This document shows positions 1,553 to 21,886 of a stretch of 22,205 bases of DNA, one piece after another (position 1 is the stretch's first letter; every line of letters begins with the position of its first letter). The DNA is from a virus (taxonomy: Duplodnaviria; Heunggongvirae; Uroviricota; Caudoviricetes): positions 1-22,205 of the IMG/VR virus record IMGVR_UViG_2671181094_000007; one strand, given 5' to 3'. The notes beneath the pieces were generated by a model. It was not told the DNA's origin. It did not search any database and saw nothing but the letters and a program-made list of their open reading frames with translations. The translations under genes were made by a program, and so were the position numbers.

Positions 1553-1741
1553 TCACGAGGACTGAAGTTTCTCGCAATTAAAATTTATCAGTTTTACTTT
1601 CTGCTCTCTGGAAACGCCTGCTTCTTTTTTACCTGAGAGCATTTTTTCGCATTCTGATTTCGTTAGTTTAGATTTTGAATATCTTGTCCAGTTAGTAGGA
1701 GTGCCACCTTCCTTTTCAATTGTAGCGGTAATTTTATACAT
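1553..1741 (-). CDS. Small hypothetical protein (YdaC-like position), 62 aa
   Basis: ORF beginning MYKITATIEKEGG with GGAGG 5 nt upstream of the ATG; the start overlaps the last codons of ralR. Lies between xis and ralR, where ydaC sits in Rac; identity by position only. Confidence 0.45.
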   Translation of the reverse strand: MYKITATIEKEGGTPTNWTRYSKSKLTKSECEKMLSGKKEAGVSREQKVKLINFNCEKLQSS

Positions 1742-13135: not shown

Positions 13136-13393
13136 ATACAGCGAACGCCATTGGTTTAGTTGGATATTTACTGTGCCGGACAAAAACGGTTTGCGGGGAA
13201 ATCTTAGTTAAGTAGAATGACTGCGGGTGCTTGAGGCTATCTGTCTCAGGCATGAACACCAAAAGGCAGATAGAGAAAAGCCCCAGTTAACATTACGCGT
13301 CCTGCAAGACGCTTAACATTAATCTGAGGCCATATCTATGCGACACATAGAGATTAGCCTCTTACGGACCGAAAGGTCAAGGAGAAGCAGGCT

Positions 13394-13549
13394 ATGAAGC
13401 AGCAAAAGGCGATGTTAATCGCCCTGATCGTCATCTGTTTAACCGTCATAGTGACGGCACTGGTAACGAGGAAAGACCTCTGCGAGGTACGAATCCGAAC
13501 CGGCCAGACGGAGGTCGCTGTCTTCACAGCTTACGAACCTGAGGAGTAA
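13394..13549 (+). CDS. hokD: Hok-family type I toxin (HokD/RelF-like), 51 aa
   Basis: MKQQKAMLIALIVICLTVIVTALVTRKDLCEVRIRTGQTEVAVFTAYEPEE: single TM helix and conserved Hok C-terminus. A 19-codon upstream ORF (MRHIEISLLRTERSRRSRL) ends overlapping the hok ATG, mok-like. Confidence 0.85.
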   Translation: MKQQKAMLIALIVICLTVIVTALVTRKDLCEVRIRTGQTEVAVFTAYEPEE

Positions 13550-15052: not shown

Positions 15053-15427
15053 ATGCGTATAGAGTTTGTTTTGCCTTACCCGCCGACGGTGAACACCTAC
15101 TGGCGACGTCGTGGCAGCACATATTTTGTATCAAAAGCCGGTGAGCGTTATCGCCGTGATGTGGCGCTTATTGTTCGCCAGCAGCGACTGAAATTAAATC
15201 TGTTCGGAAGGCTGGCGATCAGGATTATTGTGGAGCCACCGGATAAGCGTCGTCGCGACCTGGACAATATCCTGAAAGCACCGCTGGATGCGCTGACGCA
15301 TGCGGGAGTGTTAATGGACGATGAGCAGTTTGATGAAATCAATATCGTTCGTGGTCAGCCAGTATCTGGAGGACGTCTGGGGGTGAAGATTTACCCCATA
15401 ATGCATGAAGAGCAGGTCAAAAAATGA
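15053..15427 (+). CDS. rusA: RusA-family Holliday junction resolvase, 124 aa
   Basis: MRIEFVLPYPPTVNTYWRRRG...RRRDLDNILKAPLDALTHAGVLMDDEQ: conserved RusA catalytic Asp-rich motif and N-terminal PxxNxYW signature. Confidence 0.8.
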   Translation: MRIEFVLPYPPTVNTYWRRRGSTYFVSKAGERYRRDVALIVRQQRLKLNLFGRLAIRIIVEPPDKRRRDLDNILKAPLDALTHAGVLMDDEQFDEINIVRGQPVSGGRLGVKIYPIMHEEQVKK

Positions 15428-16245
15428 AACTGGAAGATTTACCGAAATACTACTCCCCAAAATCCCCTTGCCTGACCGATGCATCGGCCTCAACGTCAAA
15501 AGATGCGCTGAGTATCACTGATGTGATGGCCGCGCAGGGCATGACACAGAATCGGGCTGAGATGGGGTTTTCTGCGTTCCTGGGGAAAATGGGCATCAGT
15601 ATGAATGACAGGGCGCGGGCAACAGAATTACTGGCAGATTATGCACTCAGTCGGTGCGATCGTGTGGCGGCGTTGAGAAAACTTCCGGCAGAAATAAAAC
15701 CGGTAGTGATGCGCATTATGGCTACGTATGCGTTTGAAGATTATGCCCGCAGTGCAGCGAGTAAAAAGCAGTGTCCTTGTTGCCGTGGGGAAAAATTTAT
15801 TGAAAGCGAAGTTTTTACAAACAAGGTTCAGTATCCGGATGGTAAGCCGCCAGTATGGGCAAAGTGCACAAAAGGCGTGTATCCGTCTTATTGGGAAGAA
15901 TGGAAAAAAATCCGGGAGGTGGTGAAAGTTTCCTGTCCTGAATGTAAAGGGAAGGGAGAGATTTCCACTGCCTGTAAAGACTGCCGTGGGCGTGGTGTTG
16001 CCATTCATCGTGAAGAGTCAGAAAAACGGGGTATGCCTGTTATCAGGGACTGCCGGCGTTGTGGCGGTCGTGGCTATGAAAGACTGCCATCAACGGAGGC
16101 ATTTAATGCCATACGCAAAGTGACGAGTGCTATCACGCTTGATACGTGGAAAAAATCAGTGAAACGCTTTTACGATACGTTGGTGGTTCGGTTTGACATT
16201 GAAGAGGCATGGGCGGAGCGGCAGTTAAAGAGGGTAACGCGATAG
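15424..16245 (+). CDS. Late-gene antiterminator Q (phage 82 / QuuQ-type), 273 aa
   Basis: Cys-rich zinc-binding region (CPCCRGEKF...CPECKGKG...CKDCRGRG...CRRCGGRG); position directly after rusA and before a promoter plus terminator and the lysis genes; start overlaps the rusA stop (ATGA). Confidence 0.75.
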   Translation: MKLEDLPKYYSPKSPCLTDASASTSKDALSITDVMAAQGMTQNRAEMGFSAFLGKMGISMNDRARATELLADYALSRCDRVAALRKLPAEIKPVVMRIMATYAFEDYARSAASKKQCPCCRGEKFIESEVFTNKVQYPDGKPPVWAKCTKGVYPSYWEEWKKIREVVKVSCPECKGKGEISTACKDCRGRGVAIHREESEKRGMPVIRDCRRCGGRGYERLPSTEAFNAIRKVTSAITLDTWKKSVKRFYDTLVVRFDIEEAWAERQLKRVTR

Positions 16246-16250
16246 TATCG

Positions 16251-16278
16251 TTGATTTTTCCCGAATCTGTGTTAAATT
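16251..16278 (+). promoter_or_regulatory. Candidate late promoter (PR'-like) just downstream of Q
   Basis: TTGATT (16251-16256), 15-16 bp spacer, TTAAAT/TAAATT (16272-16278); called from position and sequence only. Confidence 0.3.
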
Positions 16279-16325
16279 CGCCCTAATGATGGGCGTTTTA
16301 TGCCTGACGTTAGAGGAATTTTTAC

Positions 16326-16351
16326 AGCCCGCCTCCGAGTGGGCTTTTGTT
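16326..16351 (+). terminator. Candidate tR'-like intrinsic terminator (Q antitermination target)
   Basis: AGCCC...GGGCT stem with 10-nt loop followed by TTTTGTT, about 50-70 nt downstream of the candidate late promoter. Confidence 0.4.
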
Positions 16352-16525
16352 GATCGTAAAAACAGTATGTATGGTATCTAACAATAGGTGATTCCTGCTT
16401 TGATGCAGGATGTGGATATGATACTGTATGTTTGTACACTATCAATATGATCAAATAACCAGTAACCACTTTAAATGAATTGGTATTAAATTAGACTCTT
16501 CCCTACTTCATTTGGATAAGAGTTT

Positions 16526-17566
16526 ATGGTTTCTGAAACTGTAACGATTACGTTCTATAAAATTCAAAAATGTGGTTACTACCGTTACGGTGTTGTAAGC
16601 CCTGCATTTGGTGGTTGTGACGAGTTGCTCACAGATCTTGCTTTATGGGCAGAAGGGAAAAAACTCAAACAGACAAAGACATATGAAGCAAATGATGAGG
16701 TTTTACCTGCTTATCTTCTGGATATGAAACGTGCTGGTGACAATGTGGTTTTGTTGCTCTGGAATGAGGTTCCTTCTACAGATCAAAGTGTTCCATCGGT
16801 TCAGGAAGATACAGAATTTGGTACGGACCCAACAGTAATACTTAATTCAATCCAGAAGGGAAGTATTCCTGGTTTTGCTACTTACTTTTGGTTTATTCCA
16901 TCCATGGATTTAGTGGCTAGCATCAAGTTTAACCATGCTTTGACGGGACAGAAGGCGATGCAATGCTATCTCTATCATTTTTTAAAACAGTCATCAAGCC
17001 ACGTTGTGGCGGAAAGTGTGGAGAAGGAAGATGGCACGCATGAGGTGGTTATCAAGGGCTATAAAATTAACCCAACAGATGATGTGCTGCCAAAGAAAAA
17101 ACACTATCCACAGTTCGTAGCTGGTTTAGTAAGAAATCCTGGTAAACATGAAGTTATTAGGCAGAATGCTAATATTGTTTCTAAAATTGAAAAGGTTGTT
17201 GAACTTGATGTGTCAAAACCTGACGAGTTTAGCCTGTGGCAAAAACTATTGATTAATATGAATATTAGCCATCCACAAACTGCAAATACCTCAACAAAAA
17301 TTAGATATGAACTTTCTCCGAATGTTGATATTGATGACATCGAGGGGATGATTGATGATTGGAATAAACATAGCGATACAAACTCTTGTGATTATGGTTT
17401 TGTATTTAAAGGAGATCCAACGACATATTGGCTCAGTCGTTCATTAGCACGAACCAAATTCCACTTGAATTTGGAGCGACAGGACGCCGAGTTTGTGTCC
17501 TCGGAATCTCTTCTTTCTGAACTTGTAGGCAAAAGGGAGCTCATATTACGCGAGGCGGGAATGTAG
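16526..17566 (+). CDS. Hypothetical soluble protein, 346 aa; first gene of AT-rich two-gene cargo module (candidate defence or abortive-infection sensor)
   Basis: Long ORF MVSETVTITFYKIQKCGYYRYGVVSPAFGGCDELLTDLALWAEGKK... with AT-rich codon usage unlike flanking phage genes; no Walker or nuclease motif recognised; stop is immediately followed by the next ATG (ATGTAGATGA). Confidence 0.6.
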   Translation: MVSETVTITFYKIQKCGYYRYGVVSPAFGGCDELLTDLALWAEGKKLKQTKTYEANDEVLPAYLLDMKRAGDNVVLLLWNEVPSTDQSVPSVQEDTEFGTDPTVILNSIQKGSIPGFATYFWFIPSMDLVASIKFNHALTGQKAMQCYLYHFLKQSSSHVVAESVEKEDGTHEVVIKGYKINPTDDVLPKKKHYPQFVAGLVRNPGKHEVIRQNANIVSKIEKVVELDVSKPDEFSLWQKLLINMNISHPQTANTSTKIRYELSPNVDIDDIEGMIDDWNKHSDTNSCDYGFVFKGDPTTYWLSRSLARTKFHLNLERQDAEFVSSESLLSELVGKRELILREAGM

Positions 17567-18076
17567 ATGAAAATCTTAGGTGGAATTTTTCTTATGGTCG
17601 TTCTGATTTTTTCTGCCTATTTTGGGAAGAATGTTCCCTTCTCATCCCAGTGGCCTCTTTATGAGGCCCTGCGAACTACAGCATCCATTATCTTTGCAGT
17701 TGTGGGAGCTTGGTTTGCGATAATCTATCCTGAACGATTAAAAAAATCATTTAGAGGTGGCAGTTCAGCGAGTGAATCTAATGGCAGTGGGATTACAAGG
17801 TTATTTACACCAATTGTACATTCTACTGCTATTTTAGCATCAGTTTTAATTATTGGCGTTGTTGCGCCATTAGTAAAACAGATACCGTTTTTTATAGATC
17901 ACAAGGACATTTTTAGGGGCGCGTCATATGCCATTTTGGTTTTTTTAACTTTATGGCAACTGTTGACAGTAATTTATAGTCTCATTGGTCCTGATATGGT
18001 TAAAAGACATAACTCGTTCCAAGAGAGAGAGAAAGATGCTGCTAATTCTATATTACCTGTCAATAAACGCAAATAA
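17567..18076 (+). CDS. Small integral membrane protein, 169 aa, four predicted TM helices; second gene of cargo module (candidate effector)
   Basis: Hydrophobic segments at roughly residues 3-19, 38-54, 83-103 and 119-140 (ILGGIFLMVVLIFSAYF, TASIIFAVVGAWFAIIY, IVHSTAILASVLIIGVVAPLV, ASYAILVFLTLWQLLTVIYSLI); starts directly after the upstream stop. Confidence 0.6.
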   Translation: MKILGGIFLMVVLIFSAYFGKNVPFSSQWPLYEALRTTASIIFAVVGAWFAIIYPERLKKSFRGGSSASESNGSGITRLFTPIVHSTAILASVLIIGVVAPLVKQIPFFIDHKDIFRGASYAILVFLTLWQLLTVIYSLIGPDMVKRHNSFQEREKDAANSILPVNKRK

Positions 18077-18171
18077 CATTTAAGTTAGTAAATTCGTTTC
18101 TTGAGTCGAGTCGCCATGTTGATGGTTTTGTATTTATTATAACGAATAACGGGTTCTTTTGATCATTTTAT

Positions 18172-18194
18172 CCGCCGTACTAGGCGGTTTTTTT
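18172..18194 (+). terminator. Rho-independent terminator closing the two-gene cargo module
   Basis: CCGCC-GTACTA-GGCGG stem-loop followed by TTTTTTT. Confidence 0.65.
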
Positions 18195-18388
18195 ATTCAG
18201 AATTTTGTTTCTTTATGGCTCGCTACGGCGGGCCTTTTTCATATCCGCGCCACGTCCGGCGTACATCGCATCAGATAACACCACACAAAAGGCATCTGCG
18301 GGTGTCTTTGACGGGGTGTTTTTTACGGGCCGCTGGTGGCCATTTTTTGTTTCCATTACACAGCGCCCGCATCTGCGAGGTGGGGGTT

Positions 18389-18604
18389 ATGAAATCCATG
18401 GATAAGTTAACAACAGGTGTCGCCTATGGCACCTCCGCAGGCAGTGCTGGCTACTGGTTTTTACAGTTGCTCGATAGAGTCACGCCCTCACAGTGGGCAG
18501 CAATAGGTGTGCTGGGTAGTCTGGTGTTTGGCCTGTTGACGTATCTGACAAATCTTTATTTCAAGATTAAAGAAGATAAGCGTAAGGCTGCACGGGGAGA
18601 GTAA
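18389..18604 (+). CDS. Holin (EssD/EssQ-like), 71 aa
   Basis: [71 protein letters not shown]; GAGGTGGGGG SD; first gene of the lysis cassette. Confidence 0.85.
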
Positions 18605-18608
18605 TTCA

Positions 18609-18953
18609 ATGACTCAAAACTATGAACTGATTGTGAAAGGGATCCGCAATTTTGAGAATAAAGTTACGGTAACTTTAGCGTTACGGGACAAAAAACGCTT
18701 TGACGGTGAAATTTTAGACCTGGACATCTCGCTGGACCGTGTTGAAGGTGCCGCGCTGGAGTTTTATGAGGCAGCAGCCAGAAGAAGCATCAGACAGGTC
18801 TTCCTGGATGTTGCTGCCGGGTTATGTGAAGGGGATGAGCAGTCACCGGAAAAGCGCCCCATAATTTTAGAGGCGCAGGGTGTGTGGATAACCTACAAAG
18901 GAAAACTGCCGGGAAGAATTACTGGTTCACTGAAGACTCCGCCGAAATGGTAA
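18609..18953 (+). CDS. ydfR: DUF1327/YdfR-like protein between holin and endolysin, 114 aa
   Basis: N-terminus MTQNYELIVKGIRNFENKVTVTLALRDKKRFDGEILDLD...EGAALEFYEAAARRS resembles recalled YdfR; starts 5 nt after the holin stop; C-terminal third looks divergent. Confidence 0.55.
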   Translation: MTQNYELIVKGIRNFENKVTVTLALRDKKRFDGEILDLDISLDRVEGAALEFYEAAARRSIRQVFLDVAAGLCEGDEQSPEKRPIILEAQGVWITYKGKLPGRITGSLKTPPKW

Positions 18954-19191
18954 TTTCACCAGCATATTTTTCTTCCAGTAATACCGCCAGCCACTTGAAA
19001 GAATTTTGTTGTTGCTGGGACCATTTGGGGTTGAGTGATTCAAGCTGGAGCGATGCCAGTGTTGGTTGCATTTGTTCCTTGGGAATTGAGAATGCCAGAT
19101 ATGAAAATGCGACAGTAAGGGCATTTACATCATCCCGAAGCCTGGAAATGCAGTCGAGCAACTCCTGTAGAGAAATGGTGCTATTGTCCAT
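18919..19191 (-). CDS. Hypothetical protein, 90 aa, antisense-oriented inside the lysis cassette
   Basis: Minus-strand ORF MDNSTISLQELLDCISRLRDDVNALTVAFSYLAFSIPKEQMQPTLASLQLESLNPKW... with GAGAGG 7 nt upstream; it fills an otherwise 340-bp non-coding gap and reads more protein-like than the overlapping plus-strand ORF. Confidence 0.35.
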   Translation of the reverse strand: MDNSTISLQELLDCISRLRDDVNALTVAFSYLAFSIPKEQMQPTLASLQLESLNPKWSQQQQNSFKWLAVLLEEKYAGEITISAESSVNQ

Positions 19192-19296
19192 AAATAATCC
19201 TCTCTATTGTATTTAACTATTCCTTGCCTGATTCAACAGGCCGGGACAGATAAACATATCCAGGGTTCAGAAACCGATAAATCCTGATAAATATCC

Positions 19297-19830
19297 ATGA
19301 ACGCAAAAATCAGATACGGCCTGTCGGCTGCCGTTCTGGCACTGATTGCCGTCGGTGCGCCTGCGCCTGATATTCTCGACCAGTTTCTGGATGAAAAAGA
19401 AGGTAACCACACAACGGCATACCGCGATGGTTCCGGTATATGGACCATCTGTCGTGGTGCCACAATGGTGGATGGTAAGCCCGTCATACCGGGAATGAGG
19501 CTGTCGAAGGAAAAATGCGACCAGGTTAACGCTATTGAACGTGATAAGGCGCTGGCATGGGTGGAGCGCAATATTAAAGTACCACTGACCGAACCACAGA
19601 AAGCGGGTATAGCGTCATTTTGTCCCTATAACATTGGCCCCGGTAAGTGTTTCCCGTCGACGTTTTATAAGCGGCTGAATGCCGGTGATCGTAAGGGTGC
19701 ATGCGAGGCGATTCGCTGGTGGATAAAAGATGGTGGGCGCGATTGCCGCATACGTTCAAATAACTGCTATGGACAGGTTATTCGTCGTGACCAGGAAAGC
19801 GCATTAGCCTGTTGGGGGATAGATCAGTGA
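19297..19830 (+). CDS. Phage lysozyme / SAR-type endolysin (glycoside hydrolase family 24), 177 aa
   Basis: N-terminal hydrophobic signal-anchor ([16 protein letters not shown]) followed by catalytic region [22 protein letters not shown]; resembles recalled phage 21-type endolysins (RrrD/RrrQ). Confidence 0.85.
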
Positions 19831-20291: not shown

Positions 20292-20428
20292 AATCTTAAC
20301 TACAATATGATTCATTTTGATGATTGTTTCATAAGGAACAGTGAAGTAAGATCTAAGAGGAGTTAAATTTTATACAGTATAATCATAATATTGCAGCAAG
20401 GTGGTTATAATTGAAAGAATATTTAGAT

Positions 20429-21886
20429 ATGAATACATCTCATGTAAGAGTTGTTACTCATATGTGTGGGTTCCTGGTTTGGCTCTATAGTCTTTCAATG
20501 TTGCCACCAATGGTTGTAGCATTGTTTTATAAAGAAAAAAGCCTGTTCGTTTTCTTTATAACTTTCGTTATATTTTTTTGCATTGGTGGCGGAGCGTGGT
20601 ATACAACTAAGAAATCTGGCATTCAATTACGTACCCGTGATGGGTTTATTATAATTGTAATGTTTTGGATTTTGTTTTCTGTTATTAGTGCATTCCCTTT
20701 ATGGATTGACTCAGAACTTAATTTAACGTTCATTGATGCTCTGTTTGAAGGGGTTTCTGGAATAACAACAACAGGAGCAACTGTAATTGATGATGTTAGT
20801 TCATTACCTCGGGCATATTTGTACTATCGGTCACAGTTAAATTTTATAGGTGGTTTAGGAGTTATTGTTCTGGCGGTTGCTGTATTGCCATTATTGGGTA
20901 TTGGTGGTGCAAAGCTTTATCAGTCAGAAATGCCGGGGCCATTTAAGGATGACAAACTCACTCCCCGCCTGGCCGATACGTCACGGACACTGTGGATAAC
21001 TTATTCTTTATTAGGTATTGCTTGTATTGTCTGTTATAGACTTGCAGGAATGCCTTTGTTTGATGCTATTTGTCACGGGATTTCCACAGTTTCGCTTGGT
21101 GGTTTCTCAACTCATAGCGAGAGTATCGGATATTTTAATAACTATTTGGTTGAGCTGGTGGCTGGTTCTTTTTCCCTGCTATCGGCTTTCAACTTCACTC
21201 TTTGGTATATTGTTATTAGCAGGAAAACGATAAAACCTTTAATCAGAGATATTGAACTTCGTTTCTTTCTGTTAATAGCCTTAGGGGTGATCATTGTTAC
21301 CTCTTTCCAGGTCTGGCATATAGGTATGTATGACTTGCATGGAAGTTTTATTCATTCGTTTTTTCTTGCCAGCTCCATGCTCACTGATAATGGTTTAGCT
21401 ACGCAGGATTATGCAAGTTGGCCCACGCACACGATAGTGTTTTTGCTGTTGTCAAGTTTCTTTGGGGGATGTATAGGTTCAACTTGTGGTGGAATTAAGT
21501 CACTTCGATTTCTTATACTTTTCAAACAAAGCAAACACGAGATAAATCAGCTTTCTCATCCCAGAGCGTTGTTGAGTGTAAATGTAGGAGGGAAGATAGT
21601 TACAGATCGTGTAATGAGGTCTGTATGGAGTTTCTTTTTTCTTTATACTCTCTTCACGGTGTTTTTTATACTGGTGTTAAATGGTATGGGATATGATTTT
21701 CTTACATCATTTGCAACAGTGGCTGCATGTATTAATAATATGGGATTAGGTTTTGGGGCTACTGCATCGTCATTCGGAGTGCTTAATGACATTGCAAAAT
21801 GTTTAATGTGCATAGCTATGATTCTTGGTCGCCTTGAAATTTATCCTGTTATTATATTGTTTTCAGGTTTTTTTTGGCGCTCCTAA
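20429..21886 (+). CDS. trkG: Trk-system potassium uptake protein TrkG, 485 aa
   Basis: MNTSHVRVVTHMCGFLVWLYSLSMLPPMVVALFYKEK...; multi-pass membrane protein; AT-rich codon usage; follows the spanin genes as in Rac. Confidence 0.9.
   Translation: MNTSHVRVVTHMCGFLVWLYSLSMLPPMVVALFYKEKSLFVFFITFVIFFCIGGGAWYTTKKSGIQLRTRDGFIIIVMFWILFSVISAFPLWIDSELNLTFIDALFEGVSGITTTGATVIDDVSSLPRAYLYYRSQLNFIGGLGVIVLAVAVLPLLGIGGAKLYQSEMPGPFKDDKLTPRLADTSRTLWITYSLLGIACIVCYRLAGMPLFDAICHGISTVSLGGFSTHSESIGYFNNYLVELVAGSFSLLSAFNFTLWYIVISRKTIKPLIRDIELRFFLLIALGVIIVTSFQVWHIGMYDLHGSFIHSFFLASSMLTDNGLATQDYASWPTHTIVFLLLSSFFGGCIGSTCGGIKSLRFLILFKQSKHEINQLSHPRALLSVNVGGKIVTDRVMRSVWSFFFLYTLFTVFFILVLNGMGYDFLTSFATVAACINNMGLGFGATASSFGVLNDIAKCLMCIAMILGRLEIYPVIILFSGFFWRS

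Follow-up and report, generated by a model that had tools for sequence, protein, structure and literature searches.

The window analysed here, the whole 22,205 nucleotides (nt) of IMG/VR record IMGVR_UViG_2671181094_000007 (Caudoviricetes), is a full-length Rac-type Escherichia coli prophage, and carries two abutting plus-strand genes, termed A and B, between a Q-type antiterminator gene and a pinholin gene. On sequence grounds the pair belongs to the PADLOC candidate system PDC-M18, both profiles of which are matched by genes abutting on one strand, and it is probably a RexAB-type two-component phage-exclusion (abortive-infection) module, carried as a self-contained cargo unit (moron) in the Q-to-holin slot. 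Fold, topology and genomic context support the RexAB-like reading, which makes the pair a distant, structure-level relative of lambda RexA/RexB; that this particular allele excludes phages would follow by analogy. The reading draws on the family assignment of both proteins, the RexB-like topology of B and an A–B adjacency kept in some 76 of 80 loci; on the homes of the family, namely the P4 hotspot, Vibrio cassettes, a Halomonas island, phage Ps59, a Burkholderia attP and a variable E. coli slot; on a conserved promoter and LexA box; and on two published RexAB-like systems of the same description, RexABpp and Sucellos. The elements in question are the following.

16353–18216, plus strand: AT-rich cargo insert (moron) comprising promoter region, gene A, gene B and terminator, delimited by GC content and megablast boundaries
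16526–17566, plus strand: gene A, encoding a soluble protein of 346 amino acids (aa), PDC-M18A family, predicted RexA/RdgC fold, proposed DNA-binding sensor
17567–18076, plus strand: gene B, encoding a 169-aa inner-membrane protein with four predicted transmembrane (TM) helices, PDC-M18B family, proposed membrane-damaging effector

Family, fold and topology of the two proteins

Protein A matches all six PADLOC PDC-M18A profiles (best E 4.6e-197, full-length E 1.3e-138) and B matches five PDC-M18B profiles (best E 3.4e-75). One of the former, PDLC04496, has 271 positions and matches A residues 76–346 (E 5e-197); in E. coli CP61_Sichuan an IS3 element sits inside gene A at the equivalent of window position ~16750, leaving pieces of 75 and 271 aa, and the profile looks as if it had been built from such an insertion sequence (IS)-truncated gene call. 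PDC systems are unpublished candidates (PADLOC), and the Domainator paper equates PDC-M18 (Domainator cluster 4) with system 4 in the hotspot of P4 satellites described by Rousset et al. 2022, whose Table S2B lists it as pFR81, 'RexA + 4TM', from E. coli IAI75, with no protection against eight coliphages. Indeed, the pFR81 proteins match PDC-M18A and PDC-M18B (2.3e-34 and 3.3e-16, respectively), while lambda RexA and RexB match the RexA and RexB profiles only. The original prediction had presented the pair as the best candidate for an undescribed system, which does not hold given the PDC-M18 match and the P4 relative already assayed by Rousset and colleagues; the pair is a prophage-borne member of an already catalogued RexAB-like candidate family.

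This family is a large one. An exhaustive profile search recovered 765 clusters of A at 50% identity, nearly all of 335–365 aa, and the protein cluster of A itself is found on more than 900 contigs; members are common on mobile elements of E. coli, Klebsiella, Pseudomonas aeruginosa and Vibrio, and every named member in a large protein collection is a 'hypothetical protein'. When one genome per species was scanned, the resulting 80 loci covered Gamma- and Betaproteobacteria, Desulfobacterota, Campylobacterota, Bdellovibrionota, Bacteroidota, Cyanobacteria and Spirochaetes. At the ~76 loci with the pairing, an open reading frame (ORF) of 165–195 aa, mostly with four TM segments (4TM), lies right after A, in most cases overlapping it by 4 nt or separated from it by a few bases, and tblastn finds similarity to B at 78 of the 80. 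The size of the A family and the recurrence of the downstream 4TM ORF argue that A and B are real genes rather than chance ORFs, and the persistence of the pairing points to an old, obligate two-gene unit. Two minus-strand ORFs inside A (17104–17340 and 17392–17544) were considered and dismissed as lacking support.

The link between A and RexA appears at the level of structure. A confident AlphaFold model of A, built on the family alignment (mean pLDDT 89.5, pTM 0.78), finds RexA as its best solved-structure match, with 163 residues superposing, and also matches RdgC, IML3 and CHL4, which are structural relatives of RexA itself (Adams et al. 2024). Because these further relatives are shared with the published RexA, the agreement in fold is not one lucky match, and A is accordingly modelled as having a fold of the RexA/RdgC/IML3/CHL4 type. 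A Foldseek search of A against the Protein Data Bank (PDB), which is less sensitive, gave nothing significant (RdgC at E 0.03), and one against BFVD returned only unnamed viral proteins of RexA-like size. Near-invariant positions in A hold Gly, Trp, Tyr, Phe, Pro, Asn and Cys, and the absence of a conserved acidic, His or Lys set fits a binding protein better than an enzyme.

Sequence comparison contributes far less to this link. Protein A has no match at E ≤ 1 to the RexA family models (Pfam PF15969, PADLOC RexA), which lambda RexA as a control matches at 1e-108; a 37-member A-family profile searched against PDB sequences did not recover 8TWQ (colicin N at E 0.5 being noise); and hhalign of the families against single RexA or RexB sequences found nothing. 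Profile–profile comparison of the A family with 29 RexA homologues gave a collinear alignment (residues 7–346 against 2–272) with P = 0.022 against 0.24 for the reversed control, and for the B family and RexB P = 0.11 against 0.17. Sequence homology to RexA/RexB is therefore not claimed. Protein B likewise has no match to the RexB models (Pfam PF15968, PADLOC RexB), and searches of both proteins against Pfam, NCBIfam and PHROGs returned PHROGs of unknown function and sub-threshold noise only. There are four hydrophobic segments in B (residues 1–19, 35–53, 88–106 and 122–140) and none in A, and a basic TM2–TM3 loop and C-terminal tail place both termini of B in the cytoplasm. Its most conserved part is TM2, with G47 invariant, and its polar residues, among them Q28, R36, R117, S120, T128 and Q131, are concentrated in or beside TM2 and TM4. 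Two further elements of the original prediction thus stand, the RexB-like 4TM layout, through the hydrophobic segments of B, and the lack of sequence similarity to RexA, through the Pfam, PADLOC, PDB-profile and hhalign searches.

The family is found in very different genomic homes, between which it moves as a promoter-to-terminator unit. Those recorded are listed here.

Hafnia, Providencia: between Q and holin genes, the Q and holin families being unrelated
Edwardsiella: lambdoid prophage, after YbcO/DUF1367 genes and upstream of the holin gene
Yersinia, Citrobacter, Pantoea, Rosenbergiella: among tail or baseplate genes
Pseudomonas, Chromobacterium: Mu-like prophages, just ahead of the lysis genes
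Pseudomonas phage Ps59: in the order repressor, two genes, pair, holin gene
Burkholderia phage: beside attP
Halomonas: directly downstream of a CI-like HTH/S24 repressor and ahead of GmrSD, a HEPN protein and Vsr/Dcm
Vibrio: single superintegron cassettes
E. coli P4 satellites: the psu-int defence hotspot

At the Halomonas locus (L105, 7159–13097), where the pair follows the repressor as rexAB follows cI, HicAB pairs flank both sides, and the whole makes up a compact defence island that an AlpA-type element carries.

The insert, its boundaries and its regulatory sequences

The unit that carries A and B is set off from the phage around it both by composition and by its distribution. Its GC content (16353–18216) is 37.7%, as against 51.3% in the left flank and 49.5% in the right. 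A megablast survey of 5,426 complete E. coli genomes found the complete 2-kb region in 33, whereas some 1,000 genomes match its ends only; in the 25 listed of the 33, which come from unrelated sources, the 2,051-nt region is 99.9–100% identical. With wider flanks, matches to other prophages end at 16333–16352, right after a tR'-like hairpin, and resume at 18217–18388, and about 1,000 other E. coli prophages have the same Q gene (91–95% nucleotide identity) followed by different cargo. Since the matches stop and resume at these points and other cargo follows the same Q, the late promoter pR', tR' and the pinholin gene are assigned to the backbone and 16353–18216 to the insert; the end of homology likewise makes the tR'-like terminator the left edge of the cargo. 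The insert has the marks of a prophage moron, being bordered by terminators, deviant in composition, and present or absent between similar phages, with a promoter of its own that conservation points to. No meaningful flanking repeats indicating an insertion mechanism were found around it, and an Rfam scan placed no family within the region of the pair. The alternative cargo after the same Q includes a 65-aa ORF, a DNA methyltransferase, tRNA genes (Ile/Arg or Thr/Gly), DUF3927, proteins of TerB-like and OB-fold type, and IraM, a layout reminiscent of the Q–S regions of Stx phages.

Within the insert, the TAG stop codon of A (17564–17566) abuts the ATG of B (17567), with purine-rich GAGG/GGGA 6–12 nt 5' of the ATG. 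On the upstream side lies the Q-type antiterminator gene (15424–16245) and downstream the S21-type pinholin gene essD (18389–18604). The regulatory features, several of which belong to the backbone, are as follows.

16251–16278, plus strand: candidate late promoter pR' of the backbone, outside the cargo and just past the Q stop codon (TTGATT, 16 nt, TG-n-TAAATT)
16279–16295, plus strand: weaker upstream hairpin, from terminator scan and folding
16326–16351, plus strand: tR'-like intrinsic terminator of the backbone, hairpin 16326–16345 and T-run (dG −11.7 kcal/mol, z −2.9)
16400–16427, plus strand: putative sigma-70-like promoter of the module itself, TTGATG at 16400–16405, 16-nt spacer, extended −10 TG-a-TACTGT at 16419–16427
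16422–16441, plus strand: palindrome resembling a LexA (SOS) box, TACTGTATGTTTGTACACTA, overlapping the −10, core CTG-N10-CAC with one core mismatch
16447–16462, plus strand: second, degenerate LexA-like box, ATG-N10-CAG
18172–18194, plus strand: intrinsic terminator closing the module, CCGCC-loop-GGCGG then T7, hairpin 18172–18187 (dG −10.0, z −3.4)
18217–18240, plus strand: second terminator-like hairpin, 18217–18234, at the backbone junction upstream of the pinholin gene (dG −14.5, z −4.9)

The candidate pR' lies within the stretch that is 91–95% shared with the ~1,000 prophages, and its assignment as pR' follows from its motifs. The promoter attributed to the module scores 8/12, under the threshold of a generic promoter scan. 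About 145 nt 5' of A are conserved among the E. coli, Hafnia and Edwardsiella copies, each of which resides in a different phage, with −35, TG and −10 all preserved, and 16400–16427 is a plausible extended −10 promoter. Its −10 forms the left arm of the palindrome at 16422–16441, which agrees with the E. coli LexA box consensus, TACTGTATATATATACAGTA, at 16 of 20 positions, the best match in the window, where 0.015 such matches are expected per shuffled window. A canonical CTGT-N8-ACAG box stands 80–106 nt before the A start codon in all 12 enterobacterial relatives considered (loci L003–L008 and L092–L097), where the background rate of this strict motif is 0.0027 per 260 nt, and is kept even where the surroundings have diverged past alignment. 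In the Yersinia, Pantoea, Citrobacter and Symbiopectobacterium copies a second CTG-N10-CAG occurs some 22 nt downstream of the first, at the place equivalent to the second box of the window. Such conservation suggests that LexA represses the module in enterobacterial relatives. Compared with the operator CTG-N10-CAG, the window has CAC instead of CAG in the core of the first box and ATG instead of CTG in that of the second, and these mismatches suggest a weakened LexA repression of this allele. The analysis yields one fresh lead, the conserved SOS operator, a regulatory feature that had not been noted before.

Everything that had been observed in this interval, and part of its interpretation, is borne out by these results. 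The original prediction had described a translationally coupled pair, more AT-rich than its flanks, lying between Q and the holin gene and bracketed by terminators; the GC comparison, the direct TAG–ATG junction and the identities of both neighbours agree with it, and both hairpins were confirmed by folding, with two more found in addition. Its assignment of the pair to the cargo (moron) genes of the Q-to-S interval is likewise upheld by the presence in 33 of 5,426 genomes and by the other cargo found elsewhere after the same Q, and the suggested comparison of related prophages shows the interval to be a variable slot in which the pair is not universally conserved.

Relation to Rex-like systems, proposed mechanism and alternatives

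Like A and B, lambda RexA/RexB (PF15969/PF15968; PDB 8TWQ) are a soluble and a small 4TM protein encoded by adjacent, co-oriented genes of a temperate phage. Dimeric RexA binds DNA non-specifically and RexB causes membrane depolarisation, the two together excluding phages such as T4 rII. RexA gives the best solved-structure match of the A model, B has the TM number and spacing, size class and basic TM2–TM3 loop of RexB, and some PDC-M18 members directly follow a CI-like repressor. The lambda pair differs in having no detectable sequence similarity to A or B, in the length of RexA (279 aa against 346, of which 163 residues superpose), and in location and control, since rexAB belongs to the immunity region, where it shares a transcript with the repressor gene, and to pRM and pLIT, whereas A and B lie outside that region, in the late Q–S slot, behind a putative LexA-box promoter of their own. 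Closer by sequence is the P4 'RexA + 4TM' system (pFR81), in which both genes are of the same families and form the same two-gene layout on a mobile element; it represents a divergent subfamily (361–386 aa, ~17% identity to A in alignment), resides in the psu-int hotspot and was inactive against the eight coliphages. A validated P4 system, 'Hydrolase + 3TM' (Rst_Hydrolase-3Tm), was rejected as a relative, for it combines a HAD hydrolase with a 210-aa 3TM protein and is unrelated to A and B.

Two recently described systems share the description of the pair. RexABpp (PP_5643/PP_5644) of the Pseudomonas putida prophage P1 (Rosendahl et al. 2026, PMC12894663) requires both genes for defence; its sensor binds DNA non-specifically, and overexpressing the sensor arrests growth and permeabilises the membrane in a manner that depends on the effector (PMC12894663). 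It resembles PDC-M18 in being prophage-borne, with a 4TM partner and a RexA fold that has no Pfam match, and its layout of repressor, two genes and pair is that of the PDC-M18 copies in Pseudomonas phage Ps59. The termini of RexABpp deduced from published primers (MHRTATFV... and ...SRLMV) gave no clear match to PDC-M18A termini and were absent from the protein and locus sets of the family, DNA patterns derived from the PP_5643 primers had no exact match in viral or metagenome collections, and a family profile search with 150 sequences recovered nothing under the name PP_5643. Sucellos (SclA/SclB), from the Vibrio cholerae superintegron, comprises two genes, both of them required, behind a promoter of their own; infected cells die early, SclB is a predicted pore-former, and the system is frequent in enterobacterial prophages (bioRxiv 10.1101/2024.07.02.601686). 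It is structurally RexAB-like with no Pfam domain match, and PDC-M18 pairs also form single Vibrio superintegron cassettes, one of whose protein sequences is listed by NCBI for V. cholerae too. The Vibrio cassette protein (P0250) differs in occurring on too few contigs to be the pandemic-lineage N16961 copy, and look-ups of the clusters of Vibrio and other members for Sucellos names gave 'hypothetical protein' only. In Vibrio superintegrons the PDC-M18 pair is followed by a cassette for a pentapeptide-repeat protein (L083, 7903–8559; L087, 2684–3283). Pentapeptide-repeat proteins are often DNA mimics, and a DNA mimic would fit a DNA-binding sensor. A phage protein of this kind has been described as an anti-Sucellos factor (Darracq et al., bioRxiv 10.1101/2024.07.02.601686).

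More remote parallels are offered by the actinobacteriophage pairs Sbash gp30/31, CarolAnn gp44/43 and Butters gp30/31, prophage-encoded exclusion systems with a membrane-protein partner, whose RexA-like proteins of 337–372 aa are nearer to A in size than is lambda RexA and, as dimers, bind DNA non-specifically. They belong to hosts of a different phylum and are likened to A and B by description, not by sequence. In Butters the roles are reversed, the RexA-like protein being the effector and the membrane protein sequestering it (PMC12894663).

A mechanism may be sketched from lambda Rex, RexABpp and Sucellos. The promoter and terminator of the insert would allow A and B to be expressed in the lysogen without switching on the holin, the terminator at 18172–18194 keeping module transcripts out of the holin gene, while during lytic growth Q-modified polymerase from pR' would read through the entire insert. 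In enterobacterial relatives expression is probably SOS-inducible through the LexA box over the promoter, with repression of the window allele weakened, and translational coupling would fix the ratio of A to B. Protein A, cytoplasmic, of RexA/RdgC fold and with no catalytic signature, would by analogy be a dimeric, non-specific DNA clamp that senses a replication or recombination intermediate of the phage, or a phage protein. Once activated it would turn on B, an inner-membrane 4TM protein that may oligomerise into a channel or pore; its opening would dissipate membrane potential and integrity, so that growth of the infected cell halts, or the cell dies, and the phage is defeated. A more tentative extension is that the enterobacterial branch practises SOS-gated exclusion, with LexA silencing the pair until RecA is activated by DNA damage, prophage induction or an incoming phage, and with the E. 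coli Rac allele having escaped through point changes in both operators. Were this the case, the system would be armed only once the cell is committed or under attack, and its position ahead of the lysis genes in many phages would couple exclusion of competitors to the late phase of the carrier.

Several results weigh against the RexAB-type exclusion reading. Sequence-level homology to RexA is marginal and that to RexB absent, as judged from the reversed controls (P = 0.022 against 0.24, and 0.11 against 0.17, respectively), and Foldseek against the PDB gave no significant match (RdgC at E 0.03). RexABpp and Sucellos are likened to PDC-M18 by description rather than by sequence, and pFR81, the sole family member tied by sequence to an experiment, gave no protection against its eight coliphages. 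Finally, the LexA-like boxes of the E. coli Rac allele are imperfect, with one core mismatch each.

Of the alternatives, a role in the life of the carrier phage rather than in host defence survives best, although it is unlikely. Here an SOS- and Q-driven RexA-like protein would favour the lytic switch, and a RexB-like channel made just before the pinholin would depolarise the membrane and set the timing of lysis. Holins are triggered by membrane depolarisation, and in phages that are unrelated the pair stands immediately upstream of holin or endolysin genes (E. coli, Hafnia, Providencia, the Mu-like prophages of Pseudomonas and Chromobacterium, and Ps59), with a LexA box at the promoter of relatives. 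Lambda RexA itself is reported to tip the bistable switch towards its lytic state, with no dependence on RexB (PMC11077077). Yet in Yersinia, Citrobacter, Pantoea and Rosenbergiella the module, its promoter and box being the same, lies among tail genes, and it occurs as well in P4 satellites, phage-free integron cassettes and a defence island, and the fact that only 33 of the ~1,000 E. coli prophages with this Q have it makes it dispensable for lysis. The lysis-modulating role that the original prediction had offered beside exclusion is thus not needed to explain the position of the pair, since the module, with its own promoter, is also found in tail regions and next to repressors, attP, P4 and integrons.

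Less probable still is an SOS-regulated module of DNA metabolism, in which A would modulate RecA or replication restart in the manner of RdgC, tethered or buffered by a membrane partner, or else a toxin–antitoxin-like stabiliser of the mobile element. The LexA boxes of relatives would suit it, as would the sequestered RexA-like effector of Butters (PMC12894663) and the IS insertions in an E. coli copy and in the N16961 Sucellos cassette, which hint at a cost. However, RdgC offers no parallel to so strict a pairing with a 4TM protein, the family resides on prophages, satellites and integron cassettes rather than in core genomes, and in published RexAB-like systems deletion of either gene is non-toxic and abolishes defence. 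Equally improbable is decay or silence of the E. coli Rac copy, as a passenger with mutated operator sites and no selective function in its host; the core mismatches in both boxes, which relatives lack, the IS3 within gene A of one strain and the inactivity of the divergent P4 relative in K-12 are set against two intact ORFs, the near-identity (99.9–100%) of the 2,051-nt region among the 25 listed of 33 genomes from unrelated sources, a protein cluster on over 900 contigs and preserved promoter hexamers.

These results supply grounds, both structural and comparative, for giving the name of a RexAB-type system to a gene pair that is widespread and annotated as 'hypothetical'. The conserved LexA box is a lead, cheap to test, on how such abortive-infection modules are silenced, and LexA repression may account for the inactivity of the P4 relative when uninduced, if that copy is similarly repressed. 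Rex biology has been unsolved for 70 years, and a large, diverse family with alignable sensors offers more handles on its trigger.

The surrounding prophage

E. coli O1:H42 CLSC36 carries the region with 100% identity, and the RefSeq annotation of this identical record lists recE, racC, kilR, sieB, racR, ydaS/T and hokD. These are followed by a DUF968 protein, RusA, an antitermination protein, two 'hypothetical proteins' and then essD, from which the order continues with a YdfR-family gene, lysozyme, a lysis protein in the Rz position, and trkG. RefSeq also annotates a 47-aa minus-strand hypothetical protein (18213–18356) that spans the terminator-rich junction of insert and essD; apart from the ORF itself, nothing was seen to support it. 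In the lysis cassette (18389–19830), essD begins with MKSM, whose two Met codons are spaced by three residues, which may be a dual translational start as in S21-type holins, and the N-terminus of the lysozyme (19297–19830) resembles an uncleaved signal-anchor (SAR type). The YdfR/DUF1327 gene (18609–18953) is inserted between the two, and is overlapped by an antisense 90-aa ORF (18919–19191) that RefSeq annotates as well. Directly after the Rz/Rz1 region, trkG (20411–21886) has a GC content of 37.8%, AT-rich like the Rex-like insert, and forms a second foreign-looking cargo gene of the same late region.

Two antitoxin RNAs were also recognised by Rfam. One, at window positions 1557–1735 (218 bits), is the RalA small RNA, antitoxin of the Rac RalR/RalA type I toxin–antitoxin pair. 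The other, sok (107 bits), appears at 13225–13396 and 13394–13549, adjoining hokD of the identical RefSeq record, so that a hok/sok-type locus sits upstream of the DUF968–RusA–Q block.

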